DNA of 64,000 bases from Escherichia phage EF1-1: sequence record PQ571289; one strand, written 5' to 3'. Shown here piece after piece: positions 4,690 through 6,080 of the stretch. The notes below the pieces were generated by a model. It saw only the letters and a list, made by a program, of their open reading frames with translations. It ran no database searches and was not told where the DNA came from. The first letter of the stretch is position 1. The number at the start of each line of letters is the position of its first letter. The translations under genes and the position numbers were made by a program.

Positions 4690-6080
4690 CAATGTTGATA
4701 GCTTTCACCTATGAAAAACCGACACAGAACAAAACTGAATAAATCGCGGTATCGAGCTAATCGACCATTAAACGAATAACCATACATCCCAGGGCAACAG
4801 GCTGTTAGAGAGCTATTTATAGCGGTTAAAATCGATCAACAACCAACAACAAACAACCGAAAAAGGCTGTTTTCTTCCTTTCCAGTGCAATGATAACCAT
4901 TATCATCTACCCATGATTATCTATGCAATATAAGCGCATAGTTATAGTGTTGATAATAGTTCGCAACAACTAACCAACAAACAACATAAAACAATAAGCA
5001 AACTAATCATAATCAAAGGAATAATAGCAAGATGATTGATAACGGCAAACAATTAAACCGTGATGAATAGTAAGCAAAATAACGATAACACGACAAAACA
5101 ACCAACTAACGAACAATAACAGACGAAACTATTAAAATAATAACTATTGCCATAATAGTAACTGAATGAAATCATTACAAAACAAATCATTCCCAGGATC
5201 ATCATTAGCACGCTATGCCGGACACATAGCGAGCTAATAATAAGCCAACTACACCCCAACAATCATAACCATCGGTGACGGTTATTTCTTGTTATTGCGT
5301 AGCTTGCAATAATTGCAAGCGTAATGACGCTTACACTTATTGCGCTGGCTTATTATTAGCATTATATGTAATTACCAAGATCATAACATTAGCGCAATAA
5401 CAATAATCATTGTAATGGTTACAATATGAAATCATTAGCAAGATGAATAATTGCACGTAGCAACATGAGCGAATAGCGACAGGTTGCATAGTGTGCACAT
5501 AATAGAATAAAAGTCAATAATTTTGGGGGCGAATACTATCGCGTAGCGATATGTTGAGCAAGTTCTCTTAAACGTAAATAAAATCAGAAAAATCTTGATT
5601 TATTTTGGCTTTTATGTTAATAAACGTTTAAATAATAATCATTCTCATATAAATAATAGTCTGCTTGTCATGAGCGGGATCGGTTGACATTGTTCCGTCA
5701 TATGATGAAGTTGCCAAACCATTGATAAATAAGTGTTTGTGTGATTTATAATCAAGTGGCCCACCTTGTCACTATGTTGGTATAAGCCTTGCATAAGTCA
5801 TTGAATACGAATGATAATTATTCTCATTCGCATGATATTTGGGAATTGTCGCTGCGTGGACCTGACGGCCCGAAAATTCGCGTTAAGCACTTCTTACGTA
5901 TGCGCCATAATTTTTGCCATATGATATTGATTCTATTAGATATTCTTGCCATGATTGCCATGAAACAGGGTGTCCCGAAATAATCTCTCCCCGTAGATAT
6001 TTTGGGTTACTTTTTATACAAGAGTGGGGTGTCAAAAATAATCGGTATATATGGAATAATTGATAGGGAATACCAATGAT
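4690..6080. other. ORF-free A+C-rich strand-skewed region with internal direct and inverted repeats
   Basis: no credible ORF on either strand; CAACAA/AACAA-rich; ATGAAATCATTA at 5166 and 5426; ATTAGCA x4. Confidence 0.5.
5302..5320. repeat. perfect 19-bp palindrome GCTTGCAATAATTGCAAGC
   Basis: read directly from sequence. Confidence 0.8.

Follow-up and report, generated by a model that had tools for sequence, protein, structure and literature searches.

A conserved hairpin core and Fur-box-like motifs beside the direct terminal repeat of phAPEC8-like myophages: a candidate genome-end control region

Introduction

The gene-free interval at positions 4690-6080 of a 64,000-nucleotide stretch of Escherichia phage EF1-1 (PQ571289; the whole stretch is called the window below) is on balance probably, if by a small measure, the control region of the genome ends, or concatemer junction, in a myophage whose DNA has a short direct terminal repeat (DTR). 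Judged by sequence similarity, this phage is a Phapecoctavirus, one of the phAPEC8-like myophages of the Stephanstirmvirinae; homologs of the interval and its flanks were found in 118 phage records, almost all from this genus, at 90-95% identity. The physical ends of related genomes fall inside the interval, and the DNA to the left of the repeat carries a hairpin core with compensatory base changes. Motifs resembling the binding site of the host regulator Fur are clustered there and within the repeat. The conserved hairpin and the cluster of Fur-like boxes beside the DTR have apparently been undescribed before, and probably help to copy or package the genome ends.

Genome Ends and Cut Sites

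The record of phage Schickermooser (MK373788) starts at the base equivalent to window position 5557 and ends at that equivalent to 5885, and alignment of both ends showed that it starts and finishes with an identical run of 329 bases; the published length of its terminal repeat is 328 bp (Korf, 2019; PMC6563267). Phage phi92 (FR775895.2), which belongs to another genus, has an annotated 343-bp right direct terminal repeat, the first and last bases of which map to 5557 and 5885, so that independent records of two genera share both boundaries to the base. With the repeat alone as query, at least eight records were found to start exactly at the base equivalent to 5557, and three phages, BI-EHEC, WPEC4, and WPEC6, have two copies of the repeat, located at the ends of their records. 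In a more sensitive BLAST search, about a dozen records begin or end inside the query interval. The Stephanstirmvirinae have been described as ending in direct terminal repeats, and a DTR of 342 bp was determined for BME3 by PhageTerm. Because the physical ends of relatives map there, 5557-5885 is regarded as the DTR, of which the present assembly has one merged, internal copy. This assignment, made by homology to the ends of relatives, is secure, and the DTR itself is already known for the group. The published descriptions of phi92 and Schickermooser give only the length of the repeat; the boundary motif and the conserved flank are undescribed there. A packaging or nick site had been proposed for the interval in a first-pass annotation made from the sequence alone, and the ends of homologous genomes do lie within it (5556^5557 and 5885^5886, where ^ marks the cut), but the A+C-rich block and the palindrome included in that proposal sit 240-850 bp to the left of the DTR.

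The sequences at the two boundaries are conserved, and read ..TGTTG^AGCAnnTTCTCTTAAA on the left and ..TCGCGTTA^AGCACnTCT on the right. In Stephanstirmvirinae the octamer GTTR^AGCA is present at both boundaries, and two of its four occurrences in 64 kb are exactly at these places. To the right of the DTR, AGCACnTC is kept in all the genera aligned in this study. The left context can be written as TATGTYR^RRCAAGTT..TCTC in a form common to the rV5-like phage Gotham. The DNA before the left cut site ends in a G run and a short GC hairpin (5537-5542/5546-5551), which sits five bases away from the cut. By eye, most genera have a hairpin of other sequence at the same place, e.g., CCGCC..GGCGG in Schickermooser and TATACCGC..GCGGTATA in Citrobacter phage Tr1, and phi92-like phages have no hairpin before the left cut.

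The Conserved Flank and its Hairpin Core

Identity was compared between classic Phapecoctavirus phages and the divergent phiWec181 clade (Table 1). The block 4654-5368 is more conserved than the DTR itself, and most of the features pointed out in the first-pass annotation lie in this block, left of the DTR. In the cross-genus alignment an island at about 4735-4762 (GTGAATAAATCGCGGTATCGAGCTAATC) is kept, and the most conserved island across Phapecoctavirus, phi92-like phages, Citrobacter phage Tr1, and Klebsiella phages is a core with four helices, P1 to P4, in which the long-range helix P2 encloses P3 and P4. P4 corresponds to the 19-bp palindrome GCTTGCAATAATTGCAAGC reported earlier, the existence of which was confirmed and which is unique in the window.

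In an alignment of nine sequences, 99.1% of the cells in the helices pair and 10 pairs are changed on both sides, as against 0-3 such pairs when the partners are slid by 1-3 columns. A covariance model built from this alignment was used to pick true homologs among pattern hits in viral and metagenome contigs; hits of the palindrome pattern in metagenomes were mostly chance matches, from which the model kept five true homologs, and four more came from viral contigs. Among the resulting 19 distinct sequences, 98.8% of the cells are paired and 13 pairs show double changes (1-5 in the slid controls). Compensatory changes of the kind used to recognize structured non-coding RNAs are accordingly present in the core. 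P3 occurs in at least six different yet complementary versions, a pattern in favor of base pairing and against the reading of a single fixed sequence by a protein. P4 is invariant except for its 3-nt loop, which suggests that its sequence may itself be recognized as well.

The core is bracketed by two copies of a direct repeat, both of which are kept in Klebsiella and Citrobacter relatives. The first-pass annotation had placed ATGAAATCATTA at 5166 and 5426, where it was indeed found, and nowhere else in the window. A second direct repeat that it listed, GCAAGATGA, is present twice as claimed, at 5027 and 5438. Its four copies of ATTAGCA were reduced to three in the region (5204, 5355, and 5434), the fourth being ATTAGCG at 5390. 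The only tandem repeats in the region are trivial ones, CAACAAC and TTGCCATGA.

In searches for a known RNA family or a tRNA, none was found in the region: only tRNAs reach a gathering score of Rfam in the window, and the best E-value for 4600-6250 is 0.91, far below every gathering score. A protelomerase target, a retron, and a self-cleaving ribozyme were also considered and dropped, as the ends are direct repeats, no reverse transcriptase is encoded nearby, and no Rfam ribozyme matches. No conserved sigma-70 promoter frames the core on either strand in any genus, the only hits being weak, non-conserved, and driven by the AT-rich boxes; neither does a conserved terminator.

Table 1. Positions of the features of the end region in the window (^, cut; identities are between the two Phapecoctavirus clades)
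Feature	Position	Strand	Remarks
Left flank	4654-5368		Identity about 90-93%; almost no indels
Intrinsic terminator of the upstream early gene	4654-4676	Both	GGGGCGC...GCGCCCC and T run
Conserved left segment	4677-4885	+	Identity 94%; no indels
Fur-box-like motif 1, TGCAATGATAACCATTATC	4886-4910		15/19; followed by a small hairpin (4921-4926/4936-4941)
G-poor tract	4960-5200	+	A 51%, C 19%, G 11% in Phapecoctavirus
Bracketing direct repeat, left copy, ATGAAATCATTA(C/G)CAA	5166-5183	+	Brackets the hairpin core
Four-helix structured core	5201-5368		Most conserved island across genera
P1	5211-5217/5225-5231		Core helix
P2	5233-5247/5346-5360		Long-range helix enclosing P3 and P4
P3	5265-5273/5277-5285		Core helix
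P4	5302-5309/5313-5320		Palindrome of 19 bp (5302-5320)
Hypervariable spacer	5369-5556		Identity 67%; many indels (about 44 gap columns)
Bracketing direct repeat, right copy, ATGAAATCATTAGCAAGA	5426-5443	+	Brackets the hairpin core
Left end-cut context, GTTG^AGCAAGTTCT	5553-5566	+	Cut 5556^5557
DTR, 329 bp	5557-5885	+	By homology to determined ends; single copy here; identity 65%; few indels
Fur-box-like motif in the DTR, TTAAATAATAATCATTCTC	5628-5648		14/19 here; 17/19 in phi92-like phages
Second Fur-box-like motif in the DTR, GATAATTATTCTCATTCGC	5807-5831		15/19 here; 17/19 in phiWec181; followed by conserved GATATTTGG
Right end-cut context, GTTA^AGCACTTCTT	5882-5895	+	Cut 5885^5886; Schickermooser and phi92 records end here
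Leader between the DTR and the first left-end gene	5886-6169	+	Identity 73%; many indels; two promoter-like units; ribosome-binding site at about 6157-6162

The Counterpart in rV5-Like Phages

For phage rV5, of the Vequintavirinae, a box marked "non-coding" was shown without comment and with no function assigned (Kropinski et al., 2013; PMC3606486). By means of the skew coordinates in the same paper, this box was located at NC_011041 104014-106617; an attempt to locate it through the neighboring protein gave only relatives of T4 gp30.8. With scores of 33-37 bits, the covariance model matches rV5 and a further five Vequintavirus genomes, in the same position and orientation. In these phages P2 is a perfect helix of 15-16 bp with another sequence, P3 is fully complementary, again with another sequence, and P4 is present with an insertion that varies in length among isolates; between the consensus sequences of the two subfamilies there are 14 double changes. 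The rV5-like core is bracketed by a different direct repeat of 18-20 bp (ATGCAAACGAATGGCATGGC). The order of parts, i.e., early genes, a terminator, a repeat-bracketed hairpin core, and the DTR, is also common to rV5-like phages.

The annotated 459-bp repeat of vB_EcoM_Gotham starts in a homologous left-cut context, TATGTCA^GACAAGTT..TCTC, as compared with TATGTTG^AGCAAGTTCTC in the window. The occurrence of the same cut motif at both boundaries was considered as a general rule; it holds in Stephanstirmvirinae and fails in Gotham. Between the core and the DTR, rV5-like phages have about 10 copies of GT(A/G)AACAGT spaced by 11-20 bp (NC_011041 about 105470-105690, and also in Gotham), and this iteron-like array has no counterpart in the window. 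In short, rV5 and Gotham resemble the present phage in that the DNA between the early-gene array and the DTR is free of open reading frames (ORFs), as well as in part order, left cut context, P2/P3/P4 layout, and bracketing repeats, whereas rV5 differs in the size of the region (2.6 kb), the GTRAACAGT array, the helix sequences, the P4 insertion, and weaker Fur-like boxes (13/19).

Fur-Box-Like Motifs

Four direct copies of an 18-mer similar to AATGATAATCATTCTCAT, at 4889, 5399, 5631, and 5810, were missed in the first-pass annotation. They resemble the Fur box of E. coli, for which GATAATGATAATCATTATC is the standard consensus quoted in many papers, and match it at 14-15 of the 19 positions. 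Matches of at least 14/19 number 12 in 64 kb, and seven of these lie in the 1.5-kb region, where 0.24 would be expected. Genome by genome, there are 4-11 such matches against 0.1-0.5 expected, the best being 17/19, and they are found at homologous positions in every genus of the Stephanstirmvirinae; close matches conserved in position across genera are those at the equivalents of 4886, 4946, 5628, and 5807-5819. Motif 1 is present at the homologous position in eight of nine aligned genomes (14-16/19) and absent in Citrobacter phage Tr1, and phi92-like and Klebsiella phages have a second box at the equivalent of 4946 (15-16/19). A related motif, AATGATAAnnnTTCTCA, is found in the DTR of the rV5-like phage Gotham.

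Strand Composition and the G-Poor Tract

The extreme A+C skew that had been claimed for the whole interval is real for about 4700-5300, whereas the right-hand 900 bp or so are unskewed. A+C amounts to 67% at 4830-5270 (z about 4.2 relative to the window) and 73% at 4960-5130, to 46-49% over 5270-6170, and to 54.6% over 4690-6080 as a whole. An even higher value, 75% (z 5.2), is reached at window 1-440, which is coding: an open frame at 2-295, homologous in position to phAPEC8_003, has a hydrophilic tail rich in K, E, and Q. Because this A+C-rich segment is coding, skew alone is not diagnostic of non-coding DNA.

The G-poor tract at 4960-5200 is about 90% identical between the Phapecoctavirus clades, and its equivalent in other genera is A+T-rich with 5-7% G. 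What is kept across genera is the depletion of G on the + strand (G 5-11%, C 14-22%, GC skew -0.28 to -0.57). The tract has an A+T content of 66-68% and a strong strand asymmetry. As RNA, the tract has little predicted structure on either strand (fold z-scores -0.65 and -1.35, the latter for the + strand). The + strand sequence of 4960-5200 has the properties looked for in a rut site, namely a stretch of 80 nt or more of RNA that is unstructured and in which C is much commoner than G.

Alternative Explanations

The pairing pattern of the core bears on whether RNA or single-stranded DNA folds, and on which strand. A structured non-coding RNA, most likely transcribed leftward from the bottom strand and acting in trans or as a primer, for example in replication or repeat duplication, is a possible explanation of the core that we consider rather improbable. 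Such an RNA would possibly continue through the tract, which is C-poor and G+U-rich on this strand, to the terminator at 4673-4657, which reads as a terminator on the - strand too. Covariation in three helices, one of them long-range, is in its favor, as is the predicted RNA fold of the core, which is 20 kcal/mol more stable on the - strand (z -7.8, as against -5.5 on the + strand). When the helices of the Stephanstirmvirinae are defined regardless of wobble, the + strand has no G.T in 733 cells, and eight of the nine helix mismatches are A.C or C.A on the + strand and hence G.U on the - strand, two of these variants being fixed in whole lineages. RNAalifold likewise pairs 621 of 624 cells of the - strand, 39 of them as G.U, although its prediction is biased towards the strand that is run. 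However, the four single changes among rV5-like isolates (two G.T, one A.C, and one T.T) show no strand bias. Wobble pairs amount to about 1% of the cells overall, which is low for covarying helices of an RNA; helices so nearly purely Watson-Crick fit folded DNA as well as RNA. For the assignment of a strand, wobble pairs would suggest the bottom strand in one subfamily and not in the other. Further points against the RNA are that no genus has a conserved sigma-70 promoter to the right of the core, that in rV5 a hairpin and T run that would terminate leftward transcripts is seen by eye directly right of the core, that no Rfam family matches, and that a transcriptome of this phage group was not found. 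Since the strand bias is not general, wobble pairs are rare, and no promoter is conserved, a leftward RNA and folded single-stranded DNA would both be candidates.

A replication origin, which had also been among the first candidates, would make the tract an unwinding element, A+T-rich and G-poor, the repeats binding sites of an initiator, and the hairpins single-strand initiation signals for a phage primase. The base composition and strand asymmetry of the tract, the direct repeats that bracket the hairpins, the 10 or so GTRAACAGT repeats of rV5, and the location in the only long gene-free stretch of the window besides the tRNA cluster are all consistent with this, and folded single-stranded DNA would be in keeping with pairing in which G.T is tolerated on one strand. 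Nevertheless, we judge an origin unlikely: DnaA-box-like sites are not enriched (three sites with one mismatch, the background level), short words occur in only 2-4 copies in the window and form no iteron array or DnaA cluster, and no initiator gene was identified beside the region. Cumulative GC skew, calculated over 64 kb of a genome of about 150 kb, is flat as far as 6 kb, beyond which it tracks the orientation of the genes, and does not change sign here; the authors of the rV5 genome came to the same conclusion for their own skew analysis (PMC3606486). Still less probable is that the G-poor tract is mainly a transcription insulator, the + strand of which, as unstructured RNA with more C than G, would load Rho and stop early read-through before the junction. 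The tract lies directly downstream of the early-gene terminator, with strong early promoters upstream, and its low G, its excess of C, and the weakness of the predicted + strand structure are consistent with this, the composition being kept in all genera despite their divergence in sequence; but a purely compositional signal would not need identity as high as 90%, with almost no indels, between the Phapecoctavirus clades, and the hairpin core would be left unexplained. That the boxes are real Fur operators, conferring iron control on end promoters or, by titration of Fur through replicated copies, switching on host iron uptake, is doubtful as well. Their excess at homologous positions, their likeness to the standard Fur box, and the two boxes in the DTR, which would be present twice per virion DNA, favor it. 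On the other side, none of the boxes has a convincing promoter overlapping it, all depart from the palindrome in the same directional way (TTCTCAT) and have one orientation, the rV5-like versions match only at 13/19, and literature linking Fur to these phages was not found. The directional half-site suggests a phage-specific factor; given this variant and the weaker rV5-like versions, both host Fur and a phage protein of similar specificity would be possible. As for a hidden small protein gene or a decaying spacer without function, ORFs of 30-80 amino acids are called here in a few records, e.g., PsgM04F, ETEC-TG, and Nernie, but the idea is very improbable: no ORF of at least 45 codons is common to nine relatives, and variable alignment columns are spread over the three phases without codon periodicity (36/34/37), on which grounds a small gene was rejected, while conservation equal to that of good genes and above that of the adjoining DTR, along with compensatory changes that indicate selection on base pairing, speaks against a spacer.

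End processing and packaging remains the favored role of the flank, and several observations weigh against it. The DTR is deduced from relatives, and the assembly of the window phage shows one copy of the repeat. The right boundary of Gotham does not repeat its left-boundary motif. The scores of 33-37 bits in rV5-like genomes are no higher than those of reverse-strand self-hits in Stephanstirmvirinae loci, for which reason synteny and the layout of the helices are the basis for regarding the cores of the two subfamilies as homologous. A long-range helix such as P2, with arms about 100 nt apart and nested hairpins, is found more typically in RNA than in DNA recognition sites, and the A.C mismatches that become G.U on the - strand in Stephanstirmvirinae suit a leftward RNA. 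The binding of terminase at the flank is, moreover, a proposal. A bottom-strand RNA, an origin, and Fur control would each be partly compatible with end processing, and in particular an origin and end processing are not exclusive of each other.

A Model for the End Region and its Relation to Known Systems

We favor the view that the flank would be a cis-acting signal for end processing and packaging in the manner of phage T7. After replication, the DTR would link genomes head to tail, as it does in T7; terminase would then cut at the two boundary motifs, and the DTR would have to be duplicated for both daughter genomes to carry it. The conserved flank could be the recognition platform for terminase or accessory proteins, which may read the repeated ATTAGCA and ATGAAATCATTA words and the invariant P4. 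Flank DNA, possibly of the bottom strand, might fold back when single-stranded and prime or guide the copying of the repeat. The G-poor tract would keep the neighboring DNA or RNA unstructured, and its + strand, which resembles a Rho loading site, could stop early transcription before the junction. The Fur-box-like motifs might be occupied by host Fur, or by a phage protein with comparable specificity, in an architectural or regulatory capacity. More speculatively, and with a likelihood well short of even, the core, the bracketing repeats, and the G-poor tract may together constitute an undescribed structured element of the Stephanstirmvirinae and Vequintavirinae that is needed for duplication or packaging of the DTR, acting in the form of a single-stranded DNA fold-back or of an RNA from the bottom strand (as primer or cofactor of packaging), with host Fur recruited to the ends.

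Arrays of short strand-biased repeats are reported (Dunn and Studier, 1983) to flank the terminal repeat of T7. The anatomy of a T7-type junction is found in the present region, i.e., a short repeat with gene-free flanks that contain short repeats and inverted repeats; for the replisome we rely on the rV5 paper, according to which rV5 encodes a primase/helicase with podovirus homologs (PMC3606486). For T7, a model with repeat duplication and a hairpin intermediate has been presented (PMC4281155). The T7 concatemer junction, which has a 160-bp repeat, is alike in its short DTR, in its gene-free flanks with short repeats and strand bias, in the inverted repeats nearby, and, presumably, in duplication before packaging. 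However, there is no sequence similarity, and the phages described here have no phage RNA polymerase promoter or pause site; they have a four-helix element with a long-range closing helix instead of a simple inverted repeat, as well as the Fur-like boxes. The DTRs of phi92 and Schickermooser are homologous in sequence, with both boundaries on the same aligned bases and the same gene neighborhood, and differ in that the repeat is internal and single in the present assembly.

The nearest model for how the flank might act is provided by the terminase recognition regions of lambda (cosB with IHF) and SPP1 (pacL/pacR), in which host-factor sites are also present. They share with it repeated short words and a site like that of a host protein beside the cut, but they are duplex DNA without covarying hairpins. 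In ColE1 RNA II, a folded element stands beside a skewed tract, and phi29 pRNA, which serves in packaging, is encoded near the genome end; both are analogies of function only. There is no similarity of sequence or fold, and a terminase is used here. Compared with the Fur boxes of E. coli, the present motifs are similar in their matches of 14-17/19, in clustering, and in conservation of position, whereas they differ in their directional variant half-site and in their place, a terminal repeat in a lytic phage, where no promoter or gene under them was identified.

Extent and Setting of the Gene-Free Interval

The absence of ORFs that had been claimed was confirmed, as none of at least 75 amino acids lies in 4641-6082. 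It had also been called the longest non-coding stretch in the window, which is correct apart from the tRNA cluster at 60677-62586 (+), where 11 tRNA genes (Met twice, Arg, Ser, Tyr, Asn, Thr, Gly, Gln, Pro, and Ile) are located. The next gene most likely starts at ATG 6170, which stands behind a GAGGAG ribosome-binding site and aligns with the start of phAPEC8_0018, and the true intergenic gap is therefore taken as 4641-6169 (1529 bp). The corresponding 1.5 kb carries no annotation in phAPEC8 and ASO2A, where it separates the terminator that follows a small early gene from the next group of small genes.

Left of the interval, small genes are arranged in an array in which a strong sigma-70 promoter and a GC hairpin precede each gene. 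Near-consensus promoters of this array are found over window 270-3440 (e.g., 276-345, 730-790, and 1185-1245), each followed by a conserved GC hairpin similar to GGGCGGCGGAATGGTCCACCGCC and a ribosome-binding site; their positions suggest that the 20-bp "PHIRE promoters" of the phAPEC8 annotation are these leader hairpins and not promoters. The array is closed by the terminator at 4654-4676, which is kept in all the genera aligned and is annotated as a terminator in phAPEC8, ASO2A, and Schickermooser. In the leader to the right of the DTR, the two promoter-like units are TTGCCA-18-AATAAT (5955-5984, 10/12) and TTTATA-18-AATAAT (6013-6042, 9/12). Both contain the direct repeats GGTGTC(N3-4)AAATAAT of the first-pass annotation, which were recovered at 5969/5978 and 6028/6036, and units of the form GGGGTGT..AAATAAT are retained in the phi92-like phages arall and muut. 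The flanking genes are mosaic: the downstream gene (6170-6547) is 93% identical to that of the phiWec181 clade, unlike the gene of phAPEC8, and the upstream gene (4215-4640) has no match in the phiWec181 locus. This comparison suggests that recombination breakpoints may lie on both sides of the end region.

Several genomes in the databases (ESCO13, ESCO5, KKP 3954, ABPW7, ECO340P2, and 10C3_SA_NWU) are opened or broken inside the region, at query positions such as 39, 877, 903, 1111, 1130, and 1197, and not at the true ends. Breaks of this kind are expected where an assembler meets a collapsed terminal repeat. The region is also matched closely by records labeled as Campylobacter phage (MG0656xx, some of them UNVERIFIED), Pseudomonas phage PsgM04F, Acinetobacter phage ABPW7, and Klebsiella phage ZCKP1, mostly at 90-97% identity (78% for PsgM04F, of the phiWec181 clade), and it seems doubtful that the Campylobacter, Pseudomonas, and Acinetobacter records name the right host.

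Significance

Among phages with short terminal repeats, T7 is the only one for which the recognition, cutting, and duplication of the ends are understood in outline, and the handling of ends is essentially unexplored for the large rV5-, phi92-, and phAPEC8-like myophages, which are widely used in phage-therapy cocktails. The present analysis provides the base-exact position of the cuts, the boundary motif that they share, and a conserved hairpin element beside the repeat that is supported by covariation. These offer targets for mutagenesis and may be of use for packaging-competent vectors and for the correct orienting and trimming of assemblies, many GenBank records of the group having been opened at arbitrary points or broken inside the region. 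If the Fur-like boxes do bind Fur, the iron status of the host would be linked to the genome ends of a lytic phage.

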